64,000 nucleotides of DNA, from the IMG/VR virus record IMGVR_UViG_3300037247_001314, positions 1-64,000 of that record; one strand, 5' to 3'. Every line of letters starts with the position of its first letter. Positions within the stretch are counted from its first letter, which is position 1. Shown here one piece after another: positions 15,489-38,513 of this stretch. The DNA is from a virus. The notes under the pieces are model-generated. The model was not told the DNA's origin. It searched no databases and saw only the letters and a program-made list of their open reading frames with translations. Both the position numbers and the translations under genes were made by a program.

Positions 15489-15505
15489 TTTCTATCTCCT
15501 GGCCA

Positions 15506-19209: not shown

Positions 19210-19887
19210 CTAGGCCGCCTGCGGGGAACGTTGAGCTTTAGCGACCGCCATGACCTCTTGGGCAAGGCCCTTGGAGAGTTCAGTGGCAATCTCGTACTTC
19301 GCGATGGCGGTGGACATGTTTTCGCCACCCTTCGAGAACCCGCCGTTCTCCTGAGAAATCGTCTGCATGACGTCCAGGACTTCGCTCTTCGAGAGCTTGT
19401 TGGCCGCGGGAGGTTGGCCAGCGATTGGCCGCTCGACGGGAGCAGCAGGCCCGAGCCCTTTGCTGAGGACAGGACCCGCGGGTTGACCCGAGAGGGCCGC
19501 CACTTGGTCGGAAAGGCTCTTCACCATTTCGCCCATCTGGACGACGCTGGTGGCGAGAGCACAGCGGAACTGGTGCTCGCTGCCTTCGCCCTTTTCGATG
19601 CGATCGGCGAGAACAGTGAGGGCGTCGACGACACCAGCGTGCTGCTCCTTGATATAGGGGCTCACGTCGACGCTCTTCACCAAGGCCTCCGTCTGGAGCG
19701 GGGCGGTAGCTGCCGCTGCGAGTGTGCCCGAGCCGCCAAGGCTCTTGAGAAGCTCTTCGCGCTCCTCGGGAGTAGCAGTGCCGGCGTTGGCCTTTTCAAA
19801 AAGGGCCTTCGATCGAGCAGCCGGGTTGCTCGCCTCAGCCGCAGCGGTGAGGGCATCCAAGCCCGTCTGGAGTTGTGTTTGGTCCAT
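19210..19887 (-). CDS. Scaffold-like protein
   Basis: Between protease and capsid; start MDQTQ with GAGGAG RBS; many hxK[SG] sites. Confidence 0.6.
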   Translation of the reverse strand: MDQTQLQTGLDALTAAAEASNPAARSKALFEKANAGTATPEEREELLKSLGGSGTLAAAATAPLQTEALVKSVDVSPYIKEQHAGVVDALTVLADRIEKGEGSEHQFRCALATSVVQMGEMVKSLSDQVAALSGQPAGPVLSKGLGPAAPVERPIAGQPPAANKLSKSEVLDVMQTISQENGGFSKGGENMSTAIAKYEIATELSKGLAQEVMAVAKAQRSPQAA

Positions 19888-19901
19888 TTGTTGGGGTCTC
19901 C

Positions 19902-20744
19902 TCAGAGCCTTCCGTGCTCTGCCAGGGTTTCGAGCGTGCAATATGCGCGCTCTGCGAAAACGTGGTCGGCTCCGGGGAACCGAGTCAAAATGAGGGCGAG
20001 AGCCTCGCTCTTGCTGATGCGCTCGTCTTGCTGCGCCGCAAGGTCTTTCTCGTCGCTCTCCAAAGATTGGGGGGACAAGATGCGACCGGCACCTTCGCCA
20101 GTGGTCGAGCCTTGGGTACTTGGGTGCTCGCCAGCGGGGGCCGCGTTGCCAGTCGTCGCCGTCATAGCCTTGATGGCTTGCTGCGCAGCTTCTTCGTCGC
20201 CCTCTTCGATAGCCACCATGCTCTTCGCCAAACACTCCAGACGAGTACCAAAGCCTATGGGGCAGTTGGTAATAGCGGTGTGCTTTACGATCGCTTCAGC
20301 GACGGTCTTGCGGTTAGGGCCTGTGCGCCGGACGACATCACCCTCGATGGAAAAACCGAGGCGGCGTTCATTGCCCGCTTTTGCGAGAGCACGGCCAAGG
20401 TCCCAAATACGGTTAGCGCGCGGAGTGTCGACCATCCAGCCTTCAGCCCACGTGCCGTTCGCGTCGGCGGTTTGGCCGTCCGGCAGCAACTCGCCTTTTT
20501 GGAAACGACGCACACCCGTGGGATAGCCGAGGGGTGAGTCGGTGTCCTTGCTGTGGTTGTCGTTGAACCAACCACTCTCCAAAAACGGCTTAAAGTTGAG
20601 CCCCTTCTGGACGACGATTTCACCTTGCTTGTCGAGGATGTCTGTCGAAATAATACCAGCGATGCGCCTTCGCATTCCACGCGGACCGCTAGCCTTCTCA
20701 AAGAAGGACAGCGGAGCGAAGAACTTGAAAGGGTCAGCACCCAT
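19902..20744 (-). CDS. Prohead protease
   Basis: ISTDILDKQGE, GWFNDNH, LGFSIEG, AITNCP. Confidence 0.88.
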   Translation of the reverse strand: MGADPFKFFAPLSFFEKASGPRGMRRRIAGIISTDILDKQGEIVVQKGLNFKPFLESGWFNDNHSKDTDSPLGYPTGVRRFQKGELLPDGQTADANGTWAEGWMVDTPRANRIWDLGRALAKAGNERRLGFSIEGDVVRRTGPNRKTVAEAIVKHTAITNCPIGFGTRLECLAKSMVAIEEGDEEAAQQAIKAMTATTGNAAPAGEHPSTQGSTTGEGAGRILSPQSLESDEKDLAAQQDERISKSEALALILTRFPGADHVFAERAYCTLETLAEHGRL

Positions 20745-20763
20745 TGCTCATCTCCAAAAACAG

Positions 20764-20813
20764 AAAAAGGCGAAGTCCAGACAGAGCATCAAAGCTCCCT
20801 CTGCGACTTCGCC
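20764..20813 (-). terminator. Long terminator/attenuator-like hairpin in the protease leader
   Basis: GGCGAAGTC...GACTTCGCC with inner stems, then TTTTT, about 20 nt before the protease ATG. Confidence 0.55.
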
Positions 20814-20871
20814 CCTACTCGAACCCTCAATCGGTTCCTAATCGGGCCCACGCGCGTGCGTTAGGTTGTCC

Positions 20872-21108
20872 TTAAGATGTATCTGTACGTCCAGATGGAG
20901 TCAAGCTTCCGCTAGGGACGACATAGCGCTCTGGCGCCAAATCCAAACCATCGTCCAGACGAATAGGCAGCTCCACAGATTGCTTGCACCAATGACATTG
21001 TGCTCGCGCGACGCCCTTGTCGTCGAAGCGAACTATCCCCTGAATGCGCAGACGCGTCTCGTCGCCCGCCTTCTGGAGCAGTCTGTTTTTGCAATGCGGG
21101 CACCTCAC
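20872..21108 (-). CDS. Zn-ribbon protein (Mu Com-like)
   Basis: MRCPHCKNRLL...AQCHWCK. Confidence 0.55.
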   Translation of the reverse strand: MRCPHCKNRLLQKAGDETRLRIQGIVRFDDKGVARAQCHWCKQSVELPIRLDDGLDLAPERYVVPSGSLTPSGRTDTS

Positions 21109-21455
21109 TACAAAAACTCCTTGAACCGTTCCTCGAGCCTCGTTTGAGCCTCAGCCTCATTTGCCGCTGTTGGCCAATCCTCATCGGGGAACTGCGTGCC
21201 GAGTTCGGCGTAACGCTGCACCGTCGGCCAGAGCAGAAGGATAATGCCCTCAGCTGTTGGCACACGCAGGATACCGTCCTCGGGGTCATCAAGGAAGTCA
21301 GGGTGCTCGTCCAGAAAGGGGAGCCACAACTTCCCATTGCCCGGAGTGTTTGATAGCTGGAGTCGACCCGCAGACATGCTCACCTTCACGGCAGCTGTGA
21401 GCGGTTGGCGGGGGGAAACGCGCAAGTCGCGCACGATGTAAATGCCGGCTTTCAT
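21108..21455 (-). CDS. Hypothetical protein
   Basis: ATGA-coupled to the 2465-aa gene (MKAGIYIV). Confidence 0.55.
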   Translation of the reverse strand: MKAGIYIVRDLRVSPRQPLTAAVKVSMSAGRLQLSNTPGNGKLWLPFLDEHPDFLDDPEDGILRVPTAEGIILLLWPTVQRYAELGTQFPDEDWPTAANEAEAQTRLEERFKEFL

Positions 21456-24400
21456 GCGCCCACCTTCAGACCTTTGCACGCGTCCTTAAGTGCTGTGTCG
21501 GTCTGAGTACCCGTGAAGAAAAAGTCGTCGACGGGGACACCATTGATTTTGGTCTTGCCGGCAGTCTTCATCGTGTTGATGAGTTCGCTGCGGATGGACA
21601 ACGAGCGGCACCACACCCCGGCGATGTCCTCATGAGCGACGCCGTTTTCGAACATCACCTCGTGATTGCTACTCGTGAGCTTCAATACCTCTTCTTCAGG
21701 CTTGCCTGTGTTCTTCGTGTCGGACTGGATTTGCGAGCCGTAACGATCGTGATGATGCGCCCAATAGTCTGCGCGCTTGAGGACACGCGGATGGTAGATG
21801 TAGCGGACCTGCGTATCGCTGTCGTCGTAACCGTGCACTGAACTTGCACCAGGGCCGCCCTTGCGCGCGACGCGCACCATCGTGCCCGCAGCGCCGCCCG
21901 TGTTGATGTCGTCGCTAGCTTGCGAACTCTTTGGCGCGGTGCCGTTTGTGTAGCCTTGTTTCCTCGATGGGATGCCTGTCTCGCTGAGCAAGATTGACGC
22001 TGCAGCTCCCGGGGAAGCCCCGCCTGTGTGCGCGAAGTAGACGTCCTTGAGTTCCTCCTTGCTGAAGCGGTCAAACCAGACAGTGTGCGCTCCGCCAGCG
22101 CCAACACGAATCTCAGCGGTGTCGACGTACTTCGCGTAGTCCATTTTCTTCAGCTGGCCATCCAGCCAAGCCTCGTCAGCATACTTGCGCCTGTCGAGGT
22201 CGTTACCGTCGATGTCGTAGAGCCAGTGCCCGCGCGTGCCTAAGCCACACTTCACGATTTGACTCTTGATGAAGAGCCGCTCTGCATCAGCGTCGTGGGT
22301 GCTAGCCGCGAGCTCGGGGGAGACGCCTGCCATCTGGAGTACGTGTTGCAGCTCTGTCTGGACATCTTTCGAGACGGGAATGCGCGCGACGAGACGCCCA
22401 CGCATCGCTACCCCTGCGGCTTGCTTTGGATCGTCTGTCTGGACGTATTTACCAGCTTGGTACATCGTGCCGTTTTGGTGACAAACGCCGACGTAAGAAC
22501 CCCCATCGGTCTTGCCGTCGTAGCCACCCCAGCCGCCTTCGATAGGCGTGTTGCCTTTCTTGTGCAGCCCCGTGTCCTCGTCGTAGATGTCGAAGCTTGG
22601 TGCTCCCTTCTTGTCGACCGGATGGTAGTATTTGACAACGCCCTTCGAGAGCTTTGAAGCGTCAGGCTCAAAATGCAGAAGGTCGCCGGTGAGCTCGTAA
22701 TAATCTTCGCCGTCTGGGTTGTCGACGCGGCGCACACTCACTTGGTGGTTTTGCCAAAGCCCTGCAGCGCCGTGCCTGATGGAATGGCCCCAGTGCCCCA
22801 TCTTGAACGAGTCGAGCGCAGCGAGGTCCCCTTCGTTATTCACCGCGAGCCCGCCCTGCTTTTGTGGGCCGAGTGCGAATGGCACGGGTGCTTGCACAAA
22901 CGCTGGCGGAAGCTCGGGGAGTATCGGGGTGACTTCCTTTGACGTTTCAAAGGCAGCGTCGAGGTCGGCCTTCGACACCGTGAAGACGGTACTGACGGAT
23001 ACCTGCGGTTCCCCGTGAGCAGTGATACCCTTTGCCGCTAAATACGCTGCAGCGTCTTCCTTTACCTTCGCAGAGACGCCGTTGAACTTGATGACAAGTT
23101 TGTCGGGCTCGCTGTCGTGCGCCTTAATCTTTTTCGGTTTCCCGGGCTCGATAGCCGTGAGGTCCGCGAGTACAACATCCCGCACCGTTTTGGTGACAAT
23201 CTCGTTAACCTCAAAGGTGGTGCCTTTCGGGTAAGTCAGACCATCGTGCGCAGCCTTGAGATACTTAGCGTCTGGAAAACGTTTCGCGAGCGCGCTCTTC
23301 TTGACGACGAGCATCGTTCCAAGGGGCGAATCGGAATCCGTCGAGGGTGGCATTCCCTCCCAGTTCTCCACAGACGTGTGGAACGCATTCGCGTCTTTGC
23401 CGGCGAGCAAATAGTTACCCTTGCCGTCCTCATGAACGTGCAGGCCTGCAGTGTAGCCTCCGTCTGCTAGCTGCTTCTGGAAGTGTGCGAGTACAAGCAA
23501 GTCCTCCGCGTCGGTCGGCTTCAGATTGTCTTTCGCCCACGCAGTCCAAGCTTGCGCTTTCTTGATTTGCTCCGAGTTGACGGGAACCTTGGGCTTCACC
23601 ACCTGGAGCGTGACGGGAGTCTTTTTCTTTTTGACCTTGTCACCAGGCCACTGAACAGACGCCCCACCTGCGTCTTTCACTAGGCTCGCTATTTGGTGCG
23701 AGGCGTAGACGCCAATGCCTTCACCCATCTTGTCGACACCGGTGAACTTCGAGTACGGCTTCCCACCGTCGGCCGTGAAGATGTCGCCCCACTTCGTGTG
23801 GAGCTTCACGTTCGCAGGGAGTTCTTTGATTTTGTCGTTGATGGTCGTCGACTTGAGATGGCCGCCGAGTGCCTTGACTTTCTTCACGCCCGACGGGTGC
23901 GAGGGCGTCTTCACCGTCAACGGGTCGACGACGACAGAATGCGTAGCGACTGATGTGTTGCCGTAGAGGTTGCCGTCGTTACCCTTCCAATAGGTCACGT
24001 TCTCTTTGACGAGTTGAATGCCAAACTTGTGGTCGGAATGCAGGACCGTCCCCACAGGGAGAGCCTTGAGTTCTGCCGGCGTCATCGAAGAAAAGTTACC
24101 CAGCGCGGGATCGAAACCGGCGTAGCCTGAATCGCTCTCCAACGTGAAGTCGGCCACGAGACTCGACGGGATGCCTTCCGACATCGGCTCGCCATCGTCA
24201 CCGATACCGGCCCAGTTACCGTTGGCGAGCTTGACGAGCTTGTCTCCAGACTTCACATGCACGCTGGCCCCAACGGGAGCCGCCTCGAGCGTGTCGACTG
24301 AGTTCACCGGCGATGTGCCGGGCCAGTCGTAGTTTGGCGCCGGAGTAATTGTTGGCGGGGTGGACGCAGCCTCGATGGCAGTCGTCTCAACAGCAAACTC

Positions 24401-27400
24401 TTTTACTGTTGCGCCGTGGTCCCCGAGCAGGCACCACGCGTTTAGGGCTCCTATGTGGGCCTGTGCCGGCTTGAGCGGAGCGAGGTTGTGGTCGTCGATA
24501 AACGTTTGAAGTACACCAGCGGCTGAGAGGCTTGCTCCCGCATTTGGATAGAAACGGAGAACATGTTCGCCACCGTGTGGGCTCACGGTGAACTTGCCGC
24601 CGTACTTCTGCTGCACCGACTCTTGCTGGATGTAGTCGCCGAGCACCATCTTCGTGACGACGGCTTTCGTCTTTTGCTCGGGGGGAATGTCTTGTGGATG
24701 GGCGCCGATGGCGGAGTCAGCCGTTATTAGCGCAGCATGGGTCGCGAAAGTGTCGTCTTGAGCGAACGCAGCAGTGTCGAGGTGGAATGCTTCTTCCATC
24801 GCTTCGTAACTGCCAGTTTTGCCGAGCGCGCTCCCGAGCGCGTAGAGCGCCGTCTGATTAGCGTCCCCGTGCGTGACGGCGCCATCCTCATTAACCGCTA
24901 CAAACTTTACTTGCCAAGGCGCACTACCATCGGTGTTGTACCCACTTGCTGTCGTCGTAATCCAAGTTTTTTTGCCCTTCCATTCGCCTTGTAGCCAAAC
25001 GCCCGTAGGCGGAACCCATGGATCCCAATGCGGACTTTTCATGCCGTAGGTTTTGTCAGGCTTACCTGGAACCGGAGCACCGGCGAGCTTCTGCGCGTTT
25101 GTCCAGACGGCTTCCTTCTCAGCAAAATCGGGTAGCGATTCCTTCGTCGTCACGACTACCGGCCCTGGGTCGCCAGAGATAGACGGGGTGGCCGGGGACC
25201 AACCAGAGAGTAATAGCTCAAGCGGAGTAAGCTCTTTTGGTTCAGGCTGCACAGTGCTTACAGGGTCGTGGGGCATCTGGACGAGCCATTCGAACGACTC
25301 GGGCTGAAAGTCCTTTGGGCTGAATGCGAACTCATCGCCAAGTTTTTTGCTGTACCACTTGCTGTCGTTGTGCTTGGTGTAGGTGTCCTTATCGTGCGTC
25401 ACCGACGAGCCCGGAGCCATCGCGGTAAGTTCGGCTACCGTCAACGGCTTGGCCCCGGAGCCACCAGCTGCGCCTGGCTGATGGATGATTTTGAGGTCGC
25501 TAGCTGCCATCTCCGTTGCAGAGAAGTTTGACCCGATGGTGTTGACGTAGCCGTCAGCAACTTTTTTATACGTGTAGCCCGCTGAGTCCTTGAGCACAGA
25601 GTTGAGAGGAAGTTTTGAAAGCTCGACAAGAGACGGAAGTTTCGCGCCTTTCCAAAGAAGTTTGCTCTCAACGTCTGGAACTGGCCCCGGGAGCACCTTC
25701 CATGTTGTGGAACTCAACGGGAGAAAGTCCGGGTGCGTAACGATGTTGGTGCCAACTGCGACCCATTGCTCGTCAGACTCTTTGATGAACGCCTTCTCAC
25801 CGTTGTTGATCATTGAGCCGAGCGGCATGGCCGCGAGCTCGGCCAACGTGAGTTCTTTTGCGCCAAATAGCGCGGGCAGCACGCCTAGGGGCAGCGGCGA
25901 CTGCGCTGCAGGGGCGTCGGGGGCGAGGACCTTCATGCCGCCATACCCAGACGATGCGTCTCCGGCGATATCGGAACTCAGCTGCTCGTCGGATAACGCA
26001 GGAATATCGGTGATGCCTAATGGCTTCCATCCAGACGCAGTCTTAACCCAACCATCCTCGCCAGGAAGGGTCTCTGGGCCCGGCTTGGATCCCGGCTCGC
26101 CATAGACGAGCATGGTGCCTTCAGGAAGTGCAGCGAGTTCGTCGCCACTCGGAAGTTTCCAATCGTCCCAGCCCGGCTCTCCGGGCGCGCTCGGGGTGAG
26201 CGGCGTAGCGAACGTCATGAGTTCGCCGCTCTTTGGTTTCACGCCAAAAAACTCCCAACCACCTCCAGACGCAACCTTCGTCTTGCCGGTTTGCTTCTTA
26301 TAATCCGCTTTGTCCTCGTAACCCTTCTGGCGGAGCCAGACCCAATCACTTGCTGCCGACAGGCTTTTGAAGGTTTGCTCTGCATCCGCTGCAGCACCGG
26401 GGACACCAGCGATAGAAACCTTGAAGCCTTCTTCCAACACTTCAAGGTCGACCGCTACCTCGTACTCTTTTGTTCCAACGCCAGTGGGCGTCGGTAACAC
26501 AAATGGCTTGAGCATCGTGTGCTTGTGCCCAACAGGAAGCGGACCGCCCTTCTTTGGGTAGACGGGGTTCGCGAGGATGGTGTCCTGGACAACAAAGTCA
26601 GAAATCACCTCAGCCTTAGGCGCGAGCCCGACGACGGGCTTGGGGGGAGGGGGCGGCTTGGGCTTTTTGAGCTGCTGGGTCGCCTTCGCTGCTGCGGAAA
26701 CAGACGGGAGCAATAGCACGGGTTTGAGCCCCGGGCTGGAGGCAGAGAACGCGCCGTACTCTGTCGCTGCACCATTCGACGCTACAGAATAGTATTTGAA
26801 AAGAGGGGCGCCGTCTGGAGATTGGTGAGCGACATAAATGTCAAACGATCCACCTCCGTCGAGAGCTTTGATGACGCTGCCGGGGAGCGGAAGGTTGGCG
26901 GGCCAATCATGTGGCACCGTCGCCTTCGCGTGCTTGGCTGCAAACAACTTCGCAGCATTTGGGATGAGTGCGGAGTCAGCGATGATGCCGTCCTCGACGG
27001 TGGCCAGCATCTCGTGCAGCGTGAGCGCCTTCTGCTCAGGCGTGACCTTCTTTTCAGCGACGAGTTCTTCGTACGTCTTGCTCGCAATGGTAGCTGCGCC
27101 TTGCAGCCCCGCAGCCTTGAGGTCCTCTGCAAACTGTTCCAACTCAAAGAGCTTCGTCGCGCTGAGCGCGATGCCGTTCTTCTTCTTATCCGACGAGTTC
27201 ATGTCTAGCGGAAGATTCTTGTTGAACAGCTGAGTGCCGTCAGCTGCTGCCGCTGGCGACGGGTAGAGTATGAACTTGCCGTCTGGAAACTGCGCCTGCA
27301 CCTCCATCTTGCCCGAAAACGGATTCAGCTCAAAGGCAAACGCAAACGTGTTGCCCGCGACCTTCACAGACGCGTAGTAGCCCGGGCCCGGATAGTTGCT

Positions 27401-28849: not shown

Positions 28850-28881
28850 GGCACCACCCTACTCGGGATGCGGAGAGGGGG

Positions 28882-29193
28882 CTACTGAGGAACGACGAAG
28901 GTGACTGCCTTCTTCTTTTTCTTTTTGGGAAAGCTTTTGCTGAGTGCAACCTCCAAGTCGACGTCGTCTGGCAGCGCGTGCTGTTGTGCGAGTTCGCCAT
29001 CAATGCGGATGTCGTAAAAGGTGCCGGCGAGTTCAGGATTCGCCCCTTCAATGAGCAAATCGCGCTTGCCCGCTACCCACGCACGCGCGTAGTCGCCAAG
29101 CACCTTCATGCCCTGCGGCGTGAAAGAGCCGTCGTCGTTCTCCGTCGCTAGCGCTTTCGAAAGCTCGACCGTTATCTGGATGTGCTCAACCAT
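28882..29193 (-). CDS. Hypothetical protein (LSKA/LSKS sites)
   Basis: Coupled to the MuF gene; poly-Lys then AVTFVV tail. Confidence 0.55.
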   Translation of the reverse strand: MVEHIQITVELSKALATENDDGSFTPQGMKVLGDYARAWVAGKRDLLIEGANPELAGTFYDIRIDGELAQQHALPDDVDLEVALSKSFPKKKKKKAVTFVVPQ

Positions 29194-31687
29194 TGCTCGC
29201 CTTCTTTCTAGCGCGGGCTCGTTGCTGGATGAGTTCGTACGCTTTCTCCTGCGTCTTCTGCGCGTTCTTGGTGCGTGTTTCAGCGACGGGGATGTGTGGA
29301 TTGTCCTCGCGGAAGTTCGCTACCAACGTCGTGCCGATGTCTTGGCGCCGATGTTTCTTTGCGACAACGAGGTTGGTACCGTCGTACTTCGCGATGGGCT
29401 TGCCCTCATGTGTCACCACGTAGTTGGCGCGGGTCGCATCGTCGTTGTGCCCACGATGCACTTCGAACTTGCTGCTGTGCCCTTCAACCTTAAACTCCTC
29501 GGGCTTCACGTGCTCAGTAAGCTTGCTGTGCTTGGGCACGAGGTCGCTCGCGTGGCCGGCTTTAGTCCGTTTGGGTTTACCGAGAAACTCTTCGCGGGAC
29601 ATCTCGTGCGCGTGTTTGTCGGCGTAGATGGGCTTTCCAGCCGCAGTGTGCCCCACCACCTTGCCCCCGCGCGAACCTTCTCCAGCCTTGTTCACGAGGT
29701 CAATAGGTTTGCGCTCCCCGTCGCCCTCGATGATGCGCGCGTCGTCGGTCTGCTCGGGGTAGCGCGGTCGGCCTTCCAGTTGCACAGGATGCCACTGACC
29801 CTCTGGCTGCCGTGTTGCTCCGCGGTTGGTCGGCACATCGCGCATCTGGAAGCTCAGGCGCTCCACCTCGCGTTTGTGCTCTTCGGCGCGGTTCTCCGTC
29901 TCATCCGGCGTGATGATGTTCTTCGTGTTCCCGTGTGCGTCGGCGATCGGGTAGATCTGATTGTCGACTCCGCCCCCGAACACATAAATCTCGGGGTCTC
30001 GACGCACGATGACGTCAGCGCGGTGCTGTGCGTCTTGAAGGTACGCAACTACGCCAGCTACGTCGTGTGGGTTGTGGGGTTTGTCTGGAAGGTCGGCTTG
30101 GATGTTCACCCCGCCGCCGCTGCCCTCCTTGAGGATGAACTGTCCGCCGCCAACAGCAAACGCAGCACCGCTCACCCCCTCGACGTGGGGCAACGCTTTG
30201 AAGAGGGTAACTGCTCTCCGGCGAAGTTTTCGGCGCACCGTGAACCGCGCTTCAGGCTCCAGCGGCGCAGGCGGTGGTGCTACAGGCGCAACGTAGTTTG
30301 GGTTGGGGATAATAAACTCAGGTTCCGCTTTCACAAGCTTGCGCGGTTTGTCGCGCGTGGTCGCGAGTTCCGTTTTGAGCTTGTTCATCGACATCGTCGT
30401 CATGCTGCCGAAGAACCCTTTGTCATCGTAGTTGCCAATGTACGCAGCCTTTGCTTCTGCCGCCGACGAGAAGCCCAGCATAATCTTGTCCTCGTCGTAG
30501 CCCTCAAACTTGCCCTCCAACGTCCGCTTGCGCTGATGCACAATGTACGCGCTTGGCGCGAGCGGGTTTGGGCCGACGAAGCAGTCGACGTGGTCTCCGT
30601 CGACGCCAAGCGTGCGCCGGATGTAGCCGTACGGCCAAAGCATGACGGTTGCGCCATCGGTCTTGTTCTTGTGGTCTTTCCAAAACCGGAGGCCTCCCGC
30701 CCCATTCTCAATAGCCACATCAAGCCCCTGGAACTGCAGCTCTCCGTCCAGACGGTACGCCTTCACCAACGCATCCATATGGAGCGCTTCCAGACGCATA
30801 GCCTTCTCAACGTCCTCAGAGTCCCCTTCGTACTCAACGCCAAACTCGCCGGCAGGAATCATCGTGCCGTCCTCGTCGTAACCCCAGCCCGCAGGAACGC
30901 GCACGATTTGGCATTGGCAGTTTGGGTGAATGGCGCCGATGCAGGCCACCCAGTCAGCAGCTTTCTTGCCTACGTTCGCGCCCGGTGGGGCCAACTGCGA
31001 GAGCTTGAAAATGATGGGAGCGCCATCTGGACCGAGGTGGAGGCGCTTGCAATGTTTGCACGCATCCGGCATCGGAATGAGCGAGACGCGCGCTTCGGGG
31101 CCGTACTGTTTACGGAAGCCATCGCCGACACCCTCCTGCATGACGTTGTGGTTTTCGGTGATGGCAATGCGGTCGAGATCCCGCGTCCAATCCTGCATCG
31201 AATGCCCGAGCCTACTTTTGAGAGTCCCTACTGTTTTCCGGGAGGCAATCTTCTCAGCCGTCTCTGTCCGGATTTTACCCTGCAGCTCTCTGCGCTGTGC
31301 GCGGTCTGCCTCGACAAGGACCTGCCCTGTCTGGAGATCGATGGTATTGCCAAGTCCCACGACGTACTGCGCAGCATTTAGCTTTGCTGTCTGGACAGCC
31401 TGCACTTCCACCGCCGACAGTGGGATGGGGTTCTTTGTGAGTTCAGCTTTCACCTTGGCAAGGTCCCACGTCGGCATGTTGGGGTCCTGGAGCTTGGCCA
31501 CCAGCTGGCCGTAGTTGTACGCCGTCTCGAACAGGTCCTCGTGGCCTTCCAAAAGGCCAGCGTCCTGCAGCTCTTTCACCATCTCCGGTGGTATAGCGGC
31601 AGGGCCGAACACGTCGACGACAAAAGCCGCGTTGTGCTTCTGGATGATGTCCTTCACCACGCGCAGGAGCTCGGGAGTGAGTTTCAC
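29186..31687 (-). CDS. MuF (SPP1 gp7-like) head morphogenesis protein fused to inorganic pyrophosphatase-like and GNAT-like domains
   Basis: RIAITE..DACKHC..IHPNCQC (MuF); IENG..YGYIRRTLGVDGDHVDCFVG..DEDKIMLGF (InPase); VVAKKHRRQDIGTTLV (GNAT motif A-like). Confidence 0.85.
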   Translation of the reverse strand: MKLTPELLRVVKDIIQKHNAAFVVDVFGPAAIPPEMVKELQDAGLLEGHEDLFETAYNYGQLVAKLQDPNMPTWDLAKVKAELTKNPIPLSAVEVQAVQTAKLNAAQYVVGLGNTIDLQTGQVLVEADRAQRRELQGKIRTETAEKIASRKTVGTLKSRLGHSMQDWTRDLDRIAITENHNVMQEGVGDGFRKQYGPEARVSLIPMPDACKHCKRLHLGPDGAPIIFKLSQLAPPGANVGKKAADWVACIGAIHPNCQCQIVRVPAGWGYDEDGTMIPAGEFGVEYEGDSEDVEKAMRLEALHMDALVKAYRLDGELQFQGLDVAIENGAGGLRFWKDHKNKTDGATVMLWPYGYIRRTLGVDGDHVDCFVGPNPLAPSAYIVHQRKRTLEGKFEGYDEDKIMLGFSSAAEAKAAYIGNYDDKGFFGSMTTMSMNKLKTELATTRDKPRKLVKAEPEFIIPNPNYVAPVAPPPAPLEPEARFTVRRKLRRRAVTLFKALPHVEGVSGAAFAVGGGQFILKEGSGGGVNIQADLPDKPHNPHDVAGVVAYLQDAQHRADVIVRRDPEIYVFGGGVDNQIYPIADAHGNTKNIITPDETENRAEEHKREVERLSFQMRDVPTNRGATRQPEGQWHPVQLEGRPRYPEQTDDARIIEGDGERKPIDLVNKAGEGSRGGKVVGHTAAGKPIYADKHAHEMSREEFLGKPKRTKAGHASDLVPKHSKLTEHVKPEEFKVEGHSSKFEVHRGHNDDATRANYVVTHEGKPIAKYDGTNLVVAKKHRRQDIGTTLVANFREDNPHIPVAETRTKNAQKTQEKAYELIQQRARARKKASNG

Positions 31688-32070
31688 CCGAGACGCTCGT
31701 AGCGCGGGTTACCGGGGCCCCATCCCGGTACGACACGAACGGCACGCGCCCTACGCGCCTTTGGCTTGAAAATACGGCGCCACCACGGCACGCGACCAAC
31801 GCGCACGATCTTGTCTACGACGTTGTACGCGGCTGTCTTCGGGATGTCCTTCCAGTACGCAATGTGTTCCACACTAAAAGTGACGTTCTTCGGTGCCGAA
31901 AATCTCAGGCGGGGATCGGGTGTAAAAAACGCGATGGTGCGGCCGTCGTTTACGAACGGCTCAGGAAGCTTAGGCGCGGGCTTCTGTCCAAGCTCAAGGT
32001 TCGCTGTGAGCATTGCTGCGGCGAGGCCAACACCGAGCTTTGCCAAAAATCCTCGTCGTGTGTCGCTCAT
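31684..32070 (-). CDS. Tat-signal protein containing a major-capsid-like peptide
   Basis: MSDTRRGFLAKLGVGLAAAML; KNVTFSVEHIAYWKDIPKTAAYNVV. Confidence 0.6.
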   Translation of the reverse strand: MSDTRRGFLAKLGVGLAAAMLTANLELGQKPAPKLPEPFVNDGRTIAFFTPDPRLRFSAPKNVTFSVEHIAYWKDIPKTAAYNVVDKIVRVGRVPWWRRIFKPKARRARAVRVVPGWGPGNPRYERLG

Positions 32071-32522
32071 GTTGCGTTCCCATCTTTCACGAGCGCAGAT
32101 TTCAACAAGCCGCAAAGCTCGTTGACGCTCATACCGTAAAGCGGGCCGTCTTCCTCGAAGTCTTCGTCGGTGTGCCCTTGCGCAATGAGCGCCGCCTTCA
32201 TCTTAGCAAATGCAGCTTCCTCAATGGCCACTACTTTTGCGGTGTAGTCGGGGCTCTCGCTTTTGATGGTGTGGTCGTCGACCGCTTGGAGAATCTCCGC
32301 CACCATGCGGTCGTACCCTCTGGTCGCGCGTGAGCGCATGCTCCCGTGAAGTTCACGGAGCGCTTGGTGCTTGAGCACGGGTTCGTGCGCGTGCAGGGAA
32401 GCCTTCTGGAGCGCGTTGGCGAGCTCGGGCGCATCGACTGCAAGCGCCTTCGCGAGTTCGTCGAGAAGGTCAGAGCCGCGCTCTGCGAGTTCCCCTTTGG
32501 TGGCGTCCAGACGTAGCCTCAT
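32067..32522 (-). CDS. Hypothetical head-module protein
   Basis: Coupled ORF (MRLRLDATKGE) with LAKA, LQKA and LLKS sites. Confidence 0.55.
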   Translation of the reverse strand: MRLRLDATKGELAERGSDLLDELAKALAVDAPELANALQKASLHAHEPVLKHQALRELHGSMRSRATRGYDRMVAEILQAVDDHTIKSESPDYTAKVVAIEEAAFAKMKAALIAQGHTDEDFEEDGPLYGMSVNELCGLLKSALVKDGNAT

Positions 32523-32926
32523 GGCGTTATGGGATCTCCCCACACCGCCCAAAGGAGTCGCAGGTCTGCAAGCGGAGTGACCTTCAGCGACGTGACGATA
32601 GCCTCCATGAACACTTTCGCGTCTGGAGCTTTAGGCGCGGTGGCTACGTCGGTCTGTCCTCGACGCACCTGGATGACTTGCCCGCTGTTGTTGATTTCTA
32701 GGTCGAAGTCGTTATCGGCTCGCAAGAAAAAACCGTAGATGGTGGTGGGGCCACCGAGGGGGACATCAAACTCGCCGGCAGCAAGAGTGATGTCCCTGGT
32801 GTCGTTGCCCTGGCTAGCGAAGCCGTCGAGGATGGTCTCCGCTAGGACGTCGCTCAGTCCGAGCAAGATGGAGGTGCCATCTTTGTCCTCAGTGAAACGT
32901 GGGTTGACGGTGTGTCGAATGCGCAT
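32519..32926 (-). CDS. Hypothetical virion protein
   Basis: GGAGG RBS; beta-rich; directly after the portal. Confidence 0.55.
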   Translation of the reverse strand: MRIRHTVNPRFTEDKDGTSILLGLSDVLAETILDGFASQGNDTRDITLAAGEFDVPLGGPTTIYGFFLRADNDFDLEINNSGQVIQVRRGQTDVATAPKAPDAKVFMEAIVTSLKVTPLADLRLLWAVWGDPITP

Positions 32927-32935
32927 AGCGCCTCC

Positions 32936-34852
32936 CTACAGGTCGAGGTCAATGTGCAAAACTGCGGCTCGGCGCTCGGCCTTCTTCAGTTTCGTAGCAA
33001 GGTGTGCGCGCTGGCCATCATACTGATCGGCGAGGGCGGACTCTCGCGCTGCGTGCGCCTTGTACTGCACAGCTAGGGCGCGAGCTTGGTCCCGCTCCAC
33101 TTTCAAATCGTGAATGGGCTGCCCCTTGCGTAGCGCCGCATCCGCGCGCATGGCCTCGGTAGGTGAGTGCGTCCAGAGACCGTCGGCGCTCTGAAGCCAA
33201 CCATCCATCCATCCCATCGACTTCGCAGCCGCATCAGGCTTAGCAGGCTTGCCGGGAGGACCACCCTCAACGTTGTTGCTTGCGCCTTCGTCGTCAGCCG
33301 CGTTCTCATTCTGGATGCCATCGAGTTCGCCGCCGAAGCCGTCGTCTTCCTCGCCAGGCTCGGGGGGAGGGGCGAAGTCGCCGACCTCCATGTCCTGCTG
33401 AGCGGCCATCGTCTTGTTCTGCATCCAGACAGGGTTGAGGATGACCTCGCCTTCGCCGTCTGGAAGCGGTGGCAAGTCTTCTTCGGCACGCACTTCGTCC
33501 ACGGTCTTGTACGACGACACGAGCTTGGTGTTGAGGTCTGCGAGCTCCTCGGGCGACGCAGCGTCGAGCCCCACGAAAGCAAACTCGAAGTCCTCGTCGA
33601 TGCGGTGGACGAGGTACGACGACAACCGGTGCGCGATGAACCGAAGCAGCGGTTGCAGCCCTTTGTCTTTCGAGTTCGCGAGCTTCTGTTTGTTGTTGCT
33701 CTCAAACATCGACGATGCGCCGCCGCTGTCGCCGTACTTGAAGTTGATTTCAAGCGGGTCCATCCCATAAATGGCGCACGCAACCTTGATGAGGAAATCG
33801 AACCACGCGCTAAACTCCATGTCTTTGTTGGACTCTTGGAGCTTGATGTATTCCAGACCTTCGGCGTTGGTGATGGGAGTTTTGAACGCGTTCTCGATGC
33901 CGGCGACCATCGAGTACCAGTGTCGACGGAAAGCGCGCAGCTGGCGCTCAGGCACCGCACCCTTGAAGTTGATGATGCCCTTGGAGCTTGTGCCTTGACT
34001 GAAAAACTTTTGGTTGTAGTCCCATGACCAAAGCAGCGACGTCACCGTCGTGATGAGCATCTCCGTCTCAGCAACGCCGTAGCCTTGGTTGCGAATGTCG
34101 GTGACGGGGTTGCGGATGCCGAAGCACAGTTGGTCCGCGCCATACTCCGCGGTGACGAGGCCATCATAAATCTGGACGTAGCGCGTCTCGTCTGGGTTCC
34201 CTTGGTAGTGGAGCTTGGTGGTGTCTGCGATGCGCAACGTAGCGCCGTCGACGGCGTAGAAGTCGAAGGGTTTGTGCCCGCGGTCTTCGCGCACCTCAAA
34301 ACCCATCTGGTCGTAGGTGAGCGCGTCGCGAGTGATTTTGCGAAGGAACGTCTCAAAGTTGTCACGGGCGTTCGGGGTAGCCTCGTCAGCCACCTTGCCC
34401 GTCGTCATCATCCAGTTGGTGATTTCTTTGCTCATCTTCTCGCTGGCACGAGAGGGGGCTGCCTTGCGGTCGCGCAGCTGAATGCGGAAACCTGTCTGGA
34501 ACTTATCCTCTTGCGGCATCGAGAACGACGCCAGCTGGTCGGTGCGAGTTTTGATTATCGCCTGGAGGATGGGCATGCGAAAGACCATCGCCTGCAGCGT
34601 CGAATAGCTGATGGAGCTCGGGCGCTCTTTATACCCGAGCGCGTCGATGACGCTGAACGGGTCCCAAAAAAGTGCCTTAGGCTCCGCCGTGGGGTCGCCA
34701 ATCTCCGACGGGTGCATTGCAGCGGTCGCAGGTGTGTTCTCCGACGGCTGTGCACCATCGTCGTCCTCGTCACCCTGAGCTTTGGCGAGGACGTCGAGGG
34801 CAGCTACCGAAGCAGCGCCCGCGGCGTCTCGCATGGTATCGAACAACCCCAA
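32936..34852 (-). CDS. Portal protein
   Basis: IIKTRTDQ, RDALTYDQ, FYAVDGATLR, YNQKFFSQG, NKDMEFSAW, SKDKGLQPLL, TVDEVRAEEDLPPL. Confidence 0.92.
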   Translation of the reverse strand: MGLFDTMRDAAGAASVAALDVLAKAQGDEDDDGAQPSENTPATAAMHPSEIGDPTAEPKALFWDPFSVIDALGYKERPSSISYSTLQAMVFRMPILQAIIKTRTDQLASFSMPQEDKFQTGFRIQLRDRKAAPSRASEKMSKEITNWMMTTGKVADEATPNARDNFETFLRKITRDALTYDQMGFEVREDRGHKPFDFYAVDGATLRIADTTKLHYQGNPDETRYVQIYDGLVTAEYGADQLCFGIRNPVTDIRNQGYGVAETEMLITTVTSLLWSWDYNQKFFSQGTSSKGIINFKGAVPERQLRAFRRHWYSMVAGIENAFKTPITNAEGLEYIKLQESNKDMEFSAWFDFLIKVACAIYGMDPLEINFKYGDSGGASSMFESNNKQKLANSKDKGLQPLLRFIAHRLSSYLVHRIDEDFEFAFVGLDAASPEELADLNTKLVSSYKTVDEVRAEEDLPPLPDGEGEVILNPVWMQNKTMAAQQDMEVGDFAPPPEPGEEDDGFGGELDGIQNENAADDEGASNNVEGGPPGKPAKPDAAAKSMGWMDGWLQSADGLWTHSPTEAMRADAALRKGQPIHDLKVERDQARALAVQYKAHAARESALADQYDGQRAHLATKLKKAERRAAVLHIDLDL

Positions 34853-34860
34853 GGGAACCT

Positions 34861-37371
34861 CTAGTCGTCGAAGGAAAGCCCATCTGGAGCGTAGACGTCA
34901 CGGCCGGGAACCGGCCGGCGAAGGCCAGGACCCTTGCTGTGGGTCTGCGGCACTCCAGACGCGGGTGCTGGCGACATGCTCTTTTGCATCGTTCCAGACA
35001 GTCGGTCAACCCCACACTCGGGGCACTTGGTCAGCGCCTTCATCACCTGCGTGTTGCAAGCGGGGCACGCTTGGCTCTTGGTAAGGTCGTTGCCCAAGTC
35101 AAAGCCGGGCTGCCGACCGTGGTAGCCGAACGAATCTTTGTCGCTGTTGAGCAGCTCCATACAATCTTGGTCGCTGATATCCGTCATGATGATGCCGCCC
35201 TTCATCATGACCTTTATCTGACGACCATTTTGCAGCGGGGCCTCTTGGCTGGGGCCCACCCCGAGACCCAACTGAACGTCGGCTTCGCCCTTGCGCATCG
35301 CTTGGACAGCAGCGGCACGACGCTGTTGCTCGGCGATGACCTCAACGTCGGCGTGCAGAGGCATGCCGGTCTGCGCGTCGAGGCCGCTCTTGGAGAAAAG
35401 CTTTGAGGAGCTTTCGTTCTGGTGCAGGCCTGGCGAGCCAACTTGGGGGTTGCTTCCAGACGGAGCGCCGGGGCTCATTCCAGACGCACCGCCATGGACG
35501 TCGTGCGTCTTAGCTCGCAACGAGCTTTGGTTGCCGGTATGATTCGGGCCGTAAGCGGGCCCCCCTTGGCTGCGCTTTTCCCCAAGACCAGCGGCGCCGG
35601 TCTGTGGGCTCGACGCTGAGGCTGCGGCCGAGCTTGGGTGGCCTGGCATCGGAGCAGTCGCATCACCGTAGGCGTTGCCTCCCTGGCTGGCTGCTGAGCG
35701 CTGCGCGCCCTGTGCGCCGTACGCGCTCGCGGGAGCTCCAGGGATGATAATCATCCCGTGCTCGTCCTTCATCTTGTCGGTGTCGTTGGGGTCGTCGGGT
35801 GTGAACTGATCGGTCGTTCCCGTCTTTCCAGACACAAGGCTGTTTTGTGGCACGTCAGGCCCTCCTTGATTAGCGCCGTAAGCGTCGCCGGCAGCGCTGT
35901 TCACTTCATTGATTCCAGACGCGCCAGTGCGAACTGCCGGTCCTCCGCCGATGCCCCCATGAGCTCCGACGCCATCGAGCCTACCACCTTCCTCGGTGCG
36001 GCTCACTTCGACGTTACCGGCGTAGCCATTGCGCTCGTCGAGGCCTTGCCGCACACCCTTTGGTAGGGGCTTACCGGTCTTGCCCATTCCGTAGTCCCCG
36101 GTGCCCGGCCCGAGATTACCTTTTCGAAGCCAATCGACAAGGCCGCCGTTGTCGCTCGCAAAACTCTTCTTGGTGTCGTCGGGCACAAGAATGCCCCCCA
36201 CTTTCTTCATCCCATACTTAGCAGCGGAGAGGCCTTGTCGCACAACTGCGCCATCCCCTGAGACGGCATCCTTGCCCGTGTGCTTCTTATGCAAATGATG
36301 GTCGTGGTCACCAGCTTTGGCTTCGTCGTGAAAATCGTCCGCCATGCGCTTAGCTGCGGCAGCACGGGTAGCGGGGTCAAACGCATGGGAGCCACCACCT
36401 CCTGCGCCGCCCATGTCCTTCTTGTATTTCTGTGAAGCGCTCGCAAGTAGGTGCCCGTAGAGCTTCGTTGCTTGAGCGTGATCGTATTTTCCAGACGCCA
36501 TTTTATTGACGAGGTTTTTTCGAATCGGCTCGTGCTGTTGGCGGTGCAGATCGCCGTCGTTCTCCGTGAACATCTGGAGTTCGCGGCTTCCTTCCGCGTC
36601 GTGGTGCTTTGCTGTTGGCGCTGACTTGCCCGAGTGTTTCTTGTCACTCCAAGGGATCTTGTGTGCGGGGTCCGCCCACTTGCCGCCGCGGGCTCCTATG
36701 TACGGGCCCGCTTTGCTGAGGCTATCGCCCTCCTCGACGAGGCCAGCGTAGCTCTTGGAGAACGTGTCTTCAGCAGCGACATCAAGCGCATCGGCTTCAC
36801 CGGCATCGCTGAGCCAAGCGTTGAGCCCCTTATTCATCTCAGAGTAGTCGCCGCCCTTGGCCGCCATTGGTGGGGGGCCTTCGTTGCTCTCGGCGCCTTC
36901 TTCTTTCGCAGCTTCGGCTTCCGCTTCGTCTGGAGCGTTCGCATCCACACCGTCGTCGTCACCATCGGCTTCCGTGCCACCTTCAACGTTTTTCTGCTCA
37001 GCCGGTTTGTCGCTACCGGTCCCACCTTTGAGAAGGTAGTCGAAGCCACTGGAGTCCATTGCGCGTGCTGCGGGCGCGGGAGCGACTGGGGCGGGTGCTC
37101 GAGCGGGCGCTGCAGTTTCCCCACCCTTTTCCAGACGCTCGCTTTTGGCAATGTGCCACTCGTAGCGCTGTTGATGGGCGGTGGTTTGCTCATCGTCGAC
37201 AAGACCGAGCACGACTTCGTCAGGTGCGTCTTGGCTCTTATGCAGGGCACGGGAGGCGTCGCGTGCGAGCGCATGCGCATCGGCGGCACTCTTATGGAGA
37301 GCAAGCGTGTCGTGCTGGACCGCTTGAGCGGTGGCTTCTTGGGCCTTATCGGCGAGGTCGGCGTATTTCAT
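34861..37371 (-). CDS. Low-complexity polyprotein with many hxK[AGS] sites (probable internal head protein)
   Basis: More than 15 such sites; KAGPYIGARGGKW tag; ELQMFTENDGDL..KNLVNK..GKYD module; C-terminal CPAC..CPECG. Confidence 0.65.
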   Translation of the reverse strand: MKYADLADKAQEATAQAVQHDTLALHKSAADAHALARDASRALHKSQDAPDEVVLGLVDDEQTTAHQQRYEWHIAKSERLEKGGETAAPARAPAPVAPAPAARAMDSSGFDYLLKGGTGSDKPAEQKNVEGGTEADGDDDGVDANAPDEAEAEAAKEEGAESNEGPPPMAAKGGDYSEMNKGLNAWLSDAGEADALDVAAEDTFSKSYAGLVEEGDSLSKAGPYIGARGGKWADPAHKIPWSDKKHSGKSAPTAKHHDAEGSRELQMFTENDGDLHRQQHEPIRKNLVNKMASGKYDHAQATKLYGHLLASASQKYKKDMGGAGGGGSHAFDPATRAAAAKRMADDFHDEAKAGDHDHHLHKKHTGKDAVSGDGAVVRQGLSAAKYGMKKVGGILVPDDTKKSFASDNGGLVDWLRKGNLGPGTGDYGMGKTGKPLPKGVRQGLDERNGYAGNVEVSRTEEGGRLDGVGAHGGIGGGPAVRTGASGINEVNSAAGDAYGANQGGPDVPQNSLVSGKTGTTDQFTPDDPNDTDKMKDEHGMIIIPGAPASAYGAQGAQRSAASQGGNAYGDATAPMPGHPSSAAASASSPQTGAAGLGEKRSQGGPAYGPNHTGNQSSLRAKTHDVHGGASGMSPGAPSGSNPQVGSPGLHQNESSSKLFSKSGLDAQTGMPLHADVEVIAEQQRRAAAVQAMRKGEADVQLGLGVGPSQEAPLQNGRQIKVMMKGGIIMTDISDQDCMELLNSDKDSFGYHGRQPGFDLGNDLTKSQACPACNTQVMKALTKCPECGVDRLSGTMQKSMSPAPASGVPQTHSKGPGLRRPVPGRDVYAPDGLSFDD

Positions 37372-37406
37372 GTCAGAACCTTAGCTGAAAGAGACGTTGA
37401 GGTCTT

Positions 37407-38513
37407 TTACCCCTTGGAGCCCGCTGCGCCCAGCTTCTTCACGGCAGCAGGTTTGAGATTTCCGCCCGCGTGCGAAAGTTCGCCAGCGCGGACAGAATCC
37501 CGGATAGCATCTTTGATGAGCTCGTCGTCGTAACCGCCGTAGCCCTTGAGGTCGTCAAGGGAGCAGCCCTTGCCTATGCGCTTGACAAGACCAGCCCGGC
37601 ATTTCTTCTTGAGCACGTCGCGTCCAGACACATGTGCGCCGTCTTGTTTCGCGTAGTCGTCCTCGTTGTAGAAGTAACGGTGCTTGCCCGTTTCCTTATT
37701 CGTCACACGACGGTGGTAGCTACCCCCTCGGGGGTCAGCCTTCCGCATCGACTCATCAAAGTCAGGATGCGAATCGTCGCCGGTGTCGTCATAAATCTGC
37801 TTTGCGAGTTCACGACCAGCTGCGTCCATCGCGAGGCAGTAGCGTTCGCCCGCGCTGAGTTCGCTTTTTCGCAAACCTTGCAACCGCCGCTGTAGACGCT
37901 GCGTCTCGTTGTGGTTGTCGCCATGGTCTCGGTAGTAGCGCGAAGCCCTGACAGTGACAGCTTTGCGCTGCACGGGATCTAGCTGCATGTACTGCAGCTG
38001 GTGGTTGAGCGACGTGCGAAAGTTGACCTCGGGATGTCCTATGTTGTCCCGCACCTGCGTCTGGATTTGCTGCTCTTGCGCAAGAGAGAGCGCAAGCCCG
38101 CGCGTTACGCCGGCTGGGCTGTGCACGGGCTCGTTGAAGCTCAAGAGCTTTGCAGCCGTCCGACCCCCACGAGGCATCGCCGTCAACGCGCTCGGGATGG
38201 TCATGCGAGGGATTTGTCCAGACACGATGCCTGTTGCCTTACTCAGCCCGCCGTTTGCTTCAGTCATCGTGTCGAGGTCGTACTGAACGCCAGTGCCGTA
38301 GAGCCCACTATCATCGACGCTACCAAGCATCGGCTGGTTGTCGGTGACGAGGACATGGAAGCATTCGCCGCTCTTCTCCGTCTTGCTTGTGAACGTGCCG
38401 CCCATCGCTTGATAAACGCCTGAGACGTAGGCGTAGTTTTCGCCTTGGCCTTGCTCTGCTGCCTTTTTTTCCGCGCGCTTCCACTTGTCGTGGTCGGTGA
38501 CATTTGCCGGCAT
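37407..38513 (-). CDS. Probable internal head protein with a ChaB-like N-terminus
   Basis: DKWKRAEKKAAEQGQGENYAYVSGVYQAMGG; MRKADPRGGSY..GKHRYFY. Confidence 0.55.
   Translation of the reverse strand: MPANVTDHDKWKRAEKKAAEQGQGENYAYVSGVYQAMGGTFTSKTEKSGECFHVLVTDNQPMLGSVDDSGLYGTGVQYDLDTMTEANGGLSKATGIVSGQIPRMTIPSALTAMPRGGRTAAKLLSFNEPVHSPAGVTRGLALSLAQEQQIQTQVRDNIGHPEVNFRTSLNHQLQYMQLDPVQRKAVTVRASRYYRDHGDNHNETQRLQRRLQGLRKSELSAGERYCLAMDAAGRELAKQIYDDTGDDSHPDFDESMRKADPRGGSYHRRVTNKETGKHRYFYNEDDYAKQDGAHVSGRDVLKKKCRAGLVKRIGKGCSLDDLKGYGGYDDELIKDAIRDSVRAGELSHAGGNLKPAAVKKLGAAGSKG

Follow-up and report, generated by a model that had tools for sequence, protein, structure and literature searches.

Where does the prohead protease of an uncultured phage cut the proteins of its head, and which of these cuts release cargo rather than destroy scaffold? 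The question is raised by a stretch of 64,000 nucleotides (the window), positions 1 to 64,000 of IMG/VR record IMGVR_UViG_3300037247_001314, which is the opening part of one virus contig of 106,804 bp with every gene on the minus strand; all features below lie on that strand. An earlier reading made from the letters and their translations (the sequence-only reading) had noticed that a hydrophobic residue, any residue and a lysine, followed by Ala, Gly or Ser, recur densely in the proteins encoded at 19210-38513, between the terminase and capsid genes, and proposed that the protease cuts these proteins inside the capsid into separate effector modules for injection. Here we argue that the motif is probably the cutting signature of the prohead protease, serving the removal of the capsid propeptide, the degradation of scaffold and pro-regions, and a fixed set of cuts in cargo proteins.

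By codon-usage score, 111 genes were called across the whole contig. Along the direction of transcription the head module comprises the terminase, proteins of 368 and 836 amino acids (aa), the portal protein, three small open reading frames (ORFs), an 833-aa MuF-like protein, a 103-aa protein, a giant protein of 2465 aa, two further small ORFs, the protease, the scaffold and the major capsid protein. The last of these (479 aa; 17683-19122) is of the SPO1 gp6.1 type (phrog_752, E 2e-83), with which it shares 37% identity, and Herelleviridae account for nearly all of the 783 matches that it has in the phage collection; the order protease-scaffold-capsid is likewise common to this phage and SPO1. 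Given the Pfam and PHROG matches, the gene order and the likeness of the capsid protein to SPO1 and other Herelleviridae, the gene assignments of the sequence-only reading are essentially right. Pfam and PHROG gave nothing above threshold for the 836-, 368- and 2465-aa proteins, and no near-identical DNA was found among cultured phages.

We counted the motif as [LIVMF]-x-K-[AGS], taking the expectation from 500 composition-preserving shuffles per protein; the motif is loose, with about one occurrence per 230 residues expected by chance. Every motif that had been listed was present in the gene named, and our own counts were slightly higher. Three proteins stand out: the scaffold, with 10 sites versus 1.17 expected (Poisson p 5e-7), the 836-aa protein, with 16 versus 3.21 (p 3e-7), and the protease, with 6 versus 0.92 (p 4e-4). 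These excesses survive, or nearly so, a Bonferroni correction for 111 proteins (p 5e-5, 3e-5 and 0.04, respectively). A marginal excess is seen in the 368-aa protein (4 versus 1.38) and in one small 161-aa protein (3 versus 0.76), the capsid protein has 4 sites, and the counts of the giant protein (11 versus 13.9), the MuF-like protein (5 versus 3.15) and the portal (3 versus 2.16) are at the level of their composition. Over the whole region 19210-38513 there are 60 sites versus 28.3 expected, against 56 versus 68.2 in the remaining genome, so that the comparison suggested with the sequence-only reading, head module against remaining proteome, does reveal an enrichment. When the scaffold, the protease and the 836-aa protein are set aside, the region retains 28 sites versus 23 (p 0.17); the whole excess resides in those three, and the dense pattern described for head-module proteins at large holds for them but not for the giant, MuF-like and portal proteins. 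A scan of all 20 residues at the position preceding the presumed cut (P1) found only Lys enriched in the dense proteins (41 versus 8.2, z 12), with no residue enriched in the set of giant, MuF-like and portal proteins or in the remaining genome. Furthermore, sites at residue 50 or earlier are present in 8 of 13 head-module proteins versus 9 of 98 others (Fisher p 5e-5).

The capsid protein offers a reference point for what the motif might do. Its predicted maturation site, DHLNK32|ALTAG (Lys codon at about 19027-19029), is kept in 24 of 25 relatives and aligns with DALNK23|ALEAG of SPO1. In the structures of the Staphylococcus phage 812 capsid (PDB 9row, 9rox and 9roz) a chain of 439 residues starts at S25, right after EDVVK24, of a 463-residue precursor, and both the K32 of the window and the VVK24|S of 812 lie 18-20 residues upstream of one shared conserved block. 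It is the homologous 812 capsid protein alone that shows cutting after Lys; for the sites of the window we infer it, including HLNK|ALTAG, which the sequence-only reading had put forward and which is indeed present, conserved and aligned with the start of the mature 812 chain. The scaffold (225 aa; 19210-19887), recognized by its position between the protease and capsid genes, as in SPO1, carries sites at K32, 48, 71, 99, 123, 143, 167, 186, 206 and 217, so that 10 of its 14 lysines lie within the motif. Across 33 scaffold-position ORFs, 49% of lysines do so, with a median spacing of 17 aa, and Leu at P3 and Ser at P1' are found at 3.8 and 4.3 times their background, respectively. One short motif is thus present at the capsid maturation site and repeatedly in scaffold/core proteins, as motif-directed head maturation requires.

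The protease itself (280 aa; 19902-20744), whose gene adjoins those of the scaffold and the major capsid protein, belongs to the phrog_1028/SPO1 gp3.2 family (phrog_1028, E 2.8e-30), and tblastn retrieved 753 phage records, almost all of them Herelleviridae proteases at about 31-35% identity. Pfam assigned no family at E <= 0.01, and no solved structure was matched by sequence. An AlphaFold2 model built from 30 homologues (mean predicted local distance difference test score, pLDDT, 81.5) was compared with 48,161 solved chains, among which the best was T4 gp21 (5jbl_A; Z 8.1, root-mean-square deviation 6.0, 137 residues, model residues 1-161), versus Z 4.4 for the next unrelated chain, 4.2 for the protease of varicella-zoster virus and 3.4 for that of human cytomegalovirus. 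Foldseek also linked the model to gp21 (probability 0.97, E 3e-3). The putative catalytic residues H64 and S132, with His before Ser along the chain, are invariant in 30 sequences. Judging from the model, the protein is most likely a serine protease of the T4 gp21/herpes-assemblin fold within the SPO1 gp3.2 family. Candidates for self-cleavage are K17 (kept in 23 of 25 relatives), K83 (20), K174 (24) and K245 (12), and sites occupy similar positions in SPO1, 812, LP-125 and PHB04; their conservation at about residues 17, 85 and 170 from Herelleviridae to this clade fits autoprocessing. K174 directly follows the catalytic domain, a position in agreement with the self-trimming known for T4 gp21 (PMC12991175) and for gp245 of Salmonella phage SPN3US (PMC10052503).

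The pattern is replicated in relatives and in cultured phages. Searching IMG/VR with the protease yielded 52 loci, mostly on contigs of 100-113 kb, with proteases 35-67% identical. At every long relative locus, 11-18 sites versus about 1.5 expected (p 1e-7 to 1e-12) fall in the ORF that follows the protease and 3-7 versus about 1.2 in the protease itself, and in no case does the giant protein upstream show an excess. In SPO1 the scaffold gp3.3 holds 11 sites versus 1.3 and the protease gp3.2 holds 8 versus 1.6, with Lys alone enriched at P1 (z 9.8). The corresponding values are 7 versus 1.3 for the scaffold-position protein and 6 versus 1.7 for the protease of phage 812, and 8 versus 1.5 and 6 versus 1.2 for those of Bordetella phage PHB04, whose protease belongs to phrog_1028 (E 3.5e-72) and whose capsid protein has its site at K36. 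These comparisons of sequences support the view that the motif marks where the SPO1-type prohead protease cuts and that it has been conserved from Herelleviridae to the present clade.

Is the signature also used within the cargo? The best placed alternative accepts a true protease signature yet holds that the cargo junctions (those around the InPase domain of the MuF-like protein, those ahead of a conserved peptide described below, and the N-terminus of the giant protein) stay uncut, the cargo being full-length in the virion. We consider this unlikely, although the confinement of the entire numerical excess to the scaffold, the protease and the 836-aa protein counts in its favor, as do two precedents for delivery without processing, the virion RNA polymerase of N4 and certain plasmid polyvalent proteins (Iyer et al. 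2017, PMC5512222). The MuF-like protein (gene 29186-31687) joins several unrelated domains among the virion genes, as polyvalent proteins do. Its N-terminal part, residues 1-309 (30761-31687), resembles the minor head protein family phrog_115 (E 1e-5, residues 133-274) and ends at ALVK309|A; the InPase module, residues 310-453 (30329-30760; PF18823, E 2.5e-29, residues 314-440), is enclosed by ALVK309|A and KLVK453|A; and the C-terminal module, residues 668-833 (29189-29686), follows LVNK667|A and opens with the peptide AGEGSRGGKVVGHTAAGKPIYA. The site at K309 survives strict alignment in 16 of 23 homologues and is found in all 22 of 22 when judged by where it lies with respect to InPase. All 22 homologous InPase domains with both flanks available are bracketed, by a site 1-17 aa before (mostly 5) and another 10-32 aa after, the chance of such a site being about 8% and 14% per flank, respectively, and none of 25 domains contains a site inside. 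The place of the domain varies from residue 51 to residue 1549, and the proteins that contain it are 575 to 3021 residues long; some of these proteins hold just two sites, both bracketing InPase. That sites in the MuF-like protein fall at domain boundaries, as the sequence-only reading had it, is therefore confirmed and strongly conserved, and flanks so constant at such different protein positions, around a domain free of sites, speak against uncut cargo. In the PB1-like phage JG024, which has no phrog_1028 protease, InPase is fused to the minor head protein and lacks flanking sites. As for the C-terminal module, which the sequence-only reading had labelled GNAT, its matches to GNAT families cover one and the same stretch and are all below threshold (Acetyltransf_7, E 0.0022, 18.8 bits with a cut-off of 27; Acetyltransf_10, E 0.0055; Acetyltransf_1, E 0.2), and it is possibly an acetyltransferase.

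PHB04 also speaks against this alternative, since it has the same modules as separate genes, each with a leader of 3-8 aa ending in hydrophobic-x-K|A. Its locus (MF663786.1, 5848-23926) encodes a RelA/SpoT-like protein, a Ser/Thr phosphatase, InPase, a 2097-aa DarB-like methylase and a 1518-aa SF2 helicase. Four of these cargo genes open with a hydrophobic leader of 6-8 residues ending in K|A (VIVFLK|A, MIILLTK|A and MKPILFLK|A for the RelA/SpoT-like protein, the methylase and the helicase, respectively), and InPase, here a gene of 169 aa, has its sites at K8 and K157.

A further line of evidence comes from a short, conserved basic peptide, hereafter the tag (GPYIGPRGGKWADPxHTIPW and its RGGK-hairpin variants), common to four head proteins, the 836-aa, MuF-like, 368-aa and giant proteins, and located 0-20 residues after a site. 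A profile of the four tags detected no further protein in the phage's own proteome; in the large head-module proteins of relatives it detected 38 distinct copies, often two per protein and internal, and 31 of them have a site at most 22 residues upstream. Scanning IMG/VR for RGGKWADP gave 61 distinct tags, 50 of which are preceded by hydrophobic-x-K-[AGS] within 16 residues. Upstream of the motif the sequence is unrelated between copies, and tags at protein starts keep a minimal leader such as MNK|A. The motif being the sole conserved element ahead of the tag in those 50 cases, and the leader being retained at protein starts, these tallies also disfavor cargo that stays uncut. When the tag was sought in phages with another type of protease, all 60 tag-bearing IMG/VR loci appeared to share one broad clade. 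Homologues of tag-bearing proteins carry Zeta_toxin/AAA_33, DUF3560, DUF6582 and DUF5661 domains. Two metagenomic homologues (P0019 and P0018) have the order tag, DUF3560, tag, Zeta-toxin/AAA_33 kinase-like domain, and so toxin-type kinase modules also travel behind a site-plus-tag junction in this group.

The 836-aa protein (gene 34861-37371) combines the tag with the highest number of sites. Eight sites fall in its predicted pro-region, residues 1-220 (36712-37371). The tag AGPYIGARGGKWADPAHKIPW comes right after SLSK220|, at the start of a protected module, residues 221-417 (36121-36711), that continues into a four-helix bundle, and six more sites lie in the C-terminal region, residues 662-836 (34864-35388), together with a CPAC...CPEC zinc ribbon. 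In homologues, 2-9 sites precede the tag, and 16 of them together have one site in the 130 aa that follow it (0.05 per 100 aa) versus 1.72 per 100 aa elsewhere. From this near-absence of sites after the tag, set against their density elsewhere, the protein looks like a precursor whose heavily cut pro-regions would be discarded to leave one protected, tag-led module. AlphaFold2, applied to residues 215-420, left the tag without structure (pLDDT about 40) and gave well-defined helices at 259-353 (pLDDT 86-95); a fold search with the bundle matched only uncharacterised standalone viral proteins of about 100 aa. The ESM Atlas model of the 836-aa protein was poor (pLDDT 0.40) and gave no usable neighbors. 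The zinc ribbon (34864-35100), located among the predicted sites K765, K778 and K797, is conserved across homologues. The 368-aa protein (37407-38513) has sites at K92, K216, K258 and K315 and shows the tag variant ADPRGGSYHRRVTNKETGKHRYFY after SMRK258|A; its homologue in the closest relative, L053 (IMGVR_UViG_3300005096_000058), has 5 sites versus 1.25 expected.

What the tag does is a more speculative matter. It could be a retained cargo signal: a cut just ahead of it would make it the new N-terminus of every module, through which the module would dock to the portal, the DNA or the inside of the capsid and be ejected along with the genome. We offer this reading, to us the most attractive one, as a tentative idea that stands a smaller chance of being right than of being wrong. 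If true, site and tag would together form a portable cassette for adding, swapping and individually releasing head-delivered enzymes, and the tag would be the phage counterpart of the cargo-loading peptides of encapsulins, which are short, conserved and unstructured, sit on otherwise unrelated cargo of an HK97-fold shell, are usually C-terminal and involve no protease. The parallel is one of analogy only, the tag being N-terminal on the predicted product and a protease being involved. A role as an exosite for the protease is another possibility. The PBCV basic adaptor domain (PF08789) was rejected as an identity for the tag, as none of the four tag peptides matched it at E <= 10 and a six-frame search of the genome gave no match.

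The giant protein (gene 21452-28849) tells a different story from the one first proposed. It had been listed among the proteins punctuated by sites, but its count is at the level of chance, and among 12 orthologues the N-terminal site is the sole conserved candidate cut site; we thus reject the notion of a polyprotein, and the giant protein probably just loses a propeptide. At its N-terminus (28661-28849) the predicted propeptide ends in FAK15|A or LSK22|A and is followed by the tag variant IAIGPKGGKIVGWKNGKPVYGG. All 11 of 11 orthologues have one site at residues 13-50 despite differing leader sequences, with IIAIGP[RK]GGKIVGY..GKPIYAGS about 20 residues after it. Further along, residues ~280-330 (~27860-28010), NHDSHGANFV...DGDIAALDKGQAF, give matches below threshold to HipA_C (E 0.05), ABC1 (E 0.09) and Fam20C (E 0.28); the D-K-G of this stretch is invariant in 12 orthologues, and it may represent a protein-kinase-like catalytic core.

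Taken with gene context and with what is known of T4, phiKZ-like phages and P1, from which we infer packaging, cutting inside the capsid and ejection into the host, these observations lead us to propose the following sequence of events. The protease would co-assemble with scaffold and cargo in the procapsid and then cut exposed hydrophobic-x-Lys sites. The capsid protein would lose a propeptide of 32 residues, while the scaffold, the protease tail, the largely disordered pro-regions of the 836-aa protein and perhaps those of the 368-aa protein would be chopped into peptides of about 20 residues that leave the shell. Cargo would be separated at programmed joints, in the MuF-like protein into the MuF domain, InPase, linker pieces and a tag-led C-terminal module. 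The giant protein would be cut once, N-terminally, with loss of the leader alone, and a cut directly ahead of each tag copy would let the released module begin with the tag. The release of effector modules foreseen by the sequence-only reading accordingly fits the MuF/InPase and site-plus-tag junctions and does not extend to the giant protein. Moreover, the densest sites, those of the scaffold, the protease and the pro-regions of the 836-aa protein, point by analogy with T4 gp22 to degradation into peptides of about 20 aa instead of to effector release.

Several considerations weigh against a cutting signature that extends to cargo. Isolated sites in the giant, MuF-like and portal proteins could be due to chance unless they are conserved, because the counts in these proteins match their composition. 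Conservation is in turn open to other causes: K320 of the giant protein is kept in 12 of 12 orthologues but lies within the kinase-like D-K-G loop, so the motif can be conserved for reasons besides cleavage, and the site ahead of InPase, at a constant 5 residues, could be conserved as a part of the domain and not as a cut site. The relatives share ancestry, and so the tallies of 22 of 22 and 50 of 61 do not represent independent events. Furthermore, what is known of this phage and its uncultured clade comes from nucleic-acid sequence, and the literature that we consulted, in which subscription journals are thinly covered so that absence is no proof, states no Lys-type specificity for SPO1-type proteases.

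A second alternative dispenses with cutting altogether and regards the motif as a binding or targeting element, such as a peptide docking to the scaffold core or the heptads of a Leu/Lys/Ser-rich coiled coil. Scaffolds are indeed helical and rich in these residues, shuffling destroys their periodicity, and short leaders can serve as targeting signals, as the capsid-targeting sequence of T4 illustrates. However, enrichment at P1 is restricted to Lys, with Arg, Glu and Gln showing none; the same motif ends the capsid propeptide, where a homologous protein is known to be cut; and the conserved sites of the protease fit autoprocessing. This leaves a binding element improbable. Finally, chance, a by-product of composition, or a motif picked after seeing the data is very hard to credit, loose as the motif is and with several of the listed proteins at chance, given the corrected p values of the scaffold and the 836-aa protein, the outcome of the shuffles and of the 20-residue P1 scan, and the replication in 50-odd relatives, SPO1, 812 and PHB04.

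The remaining proteins of the head module add detail. The portal (638 aa; 32936-34852; PF04860, E 2e-25) has a candidate site, VLAK24|A, kept in 7 of 15 relatives, and its other sites show no conservation. Only residues 1-297 of it are matched by the portal of L053, at 83% identity; the ORFs of L053 at 5646-8849 and 12544-15585 encode a terminase of 1067 aa and a portal of 1013 aa, and these enlarged products may contain inserts such as inteins, or additional fused domains. In the window the large terminase (644 aa; 38567-40501) has a motif count at chance. The 161-aa protein (32067-32552; sites K35, K50 and K151) has parts that occur fused into large proteins of relatives. Between its gene and that of the MuF-like protein, a 128-aa ORF (31684-32070) resembles, over residues 49-91 (about 43 residues), the N-terminal part of the major capsid proteins found in relatives, with 44% identity and E 2e-6 to that of one relative (L039). 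The 103-aa protein (28882-29193), with sites ELSK13|A and ALSK86|S, has homologues directly upstream of the giant gene in relatives. Just upstream of the protease, a 78-aa zinc-ribbon ORF (CxxC...CxxC; 20872-21108) has the site LQK13|A, and in relatives its place is occupied by ORFs of 72-88 aa with 2-3 sites.

How does the proposed system relate to those already described? Its logic is that of T4 gp21 and SPN3US gp245; the differences reside in the Lys at P1 and in the predicted cuts inside multi-domain cargo. T4 gp21 (MEROPS S77), with which the protease of the window has its fold in common (5jbl), cuts at (L/I)-x-E (PMC12991175). In T4 the scaffold gp22 contains repeated copies of a motif with a hydrophobic P3 and is reduced to small peptides, short N-terminal leaders are taken off head-internal proteins and the protease inactivates itself, all of which we likewise predict here. 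Leaders of the T4 capsid-targeting type, short, N-terminal and ending at a protease site, are also seen here in 8 of 13 head proteins and in 11 of 11 giant orthologues. Unlike in T4, P1 is Lys instead of Glu, cuts are predicted also within multi-domain cargo, and the conserved tag would be retained on the product and not removed. At the level of sequence, no likeness to gp21, gp22 or the internal proteins of T4 can be detected. In phiKZ (gp175) and SPN3US (gp245) a motif-directed protease cuts many head proteins and removes long propeptides at several sites (PMC10052503). In the latter phage, cleavage follows a P1 Glu in a three-residue P3-X-P1 motif, with support from mass spectrometry, gp245 removes its own C-terminal part, and the cargo is thought to be ejected into the host (PMC10052503). 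The cuts in SPN3US are nearly all removals of N-terminal propeptides, whereas here the separation of internal modules is predicted from sequence.

Closer relatives are found in the Herelleviridae (SPO1, 812 and Listeria A511-like phages), with a homologous capsid protein (37% identity) and protease (about 33%), an equivalent capsid site and the same excess of sites in scaffold and protease. Between portal and protease, the head modules that we examined in this family lack the giant and MuF/InPase cargo genes present in the one described here. We found no description of multi-site scaffolds in Herelleviridae in a literature search that covered subscription journals thinly. Polyvalent proteins, in turn, are large multi-domain head-associated proteins, InPase-bearing ones included, that are predicted to enter the host with the DNA (Iyer et al. 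2017, PMC5512222). Their processing into units has been proposed, mainly through embedded metallopeptidase domains (PMC5512222). As in these proteins and in DarB/DdrB of phage P1, large InPase-bearing head proteins are present here, probably with kinase-like and acetyltransferase-like domains. The difference is that the junctions bear the prohead-protease motif and that no metallopeptidase was found by Pfam; indeed, Pfam reported no peptidase family for the 833-, 836- and 2465-aa proteins, searched whole or in pieces of 300 aa, a search that a divergent domain could escape.

The analysis provides a usable rule, cutting after hydrophobic-x-Lys and before Ser, Ala or Gly, for a large protease family that spans therapeutic Staphylococcus and Listeria phages of the Herelleviridae as well as many uncultured phages of about 100 kb. 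The code can be tested directly in the cultured phages SPO1, 812 and PHB04, the last of which is a good experimental model. From sequence, the rule predicts mature virion proteins, the removal of scaffold and the true units of giant multi-enzyme head proteins. It also suggests a second route for the processing of polyvalent proteins, by the prohead protease, beside the published proposal of embedded metallopeptidases. If the short tag guides proteins into phage heads, as it may, the engineering of phages that deliver proteins would profit from it. Finally, prohead proteases trigger the immunity of the cyclic-oligonucleotide-based antiphage signaling system (CBASS) via motif-specific cleavage of a loop (PMC12991175), and the Lys-type code therefore predicts sensor loops able to detect this phage family.

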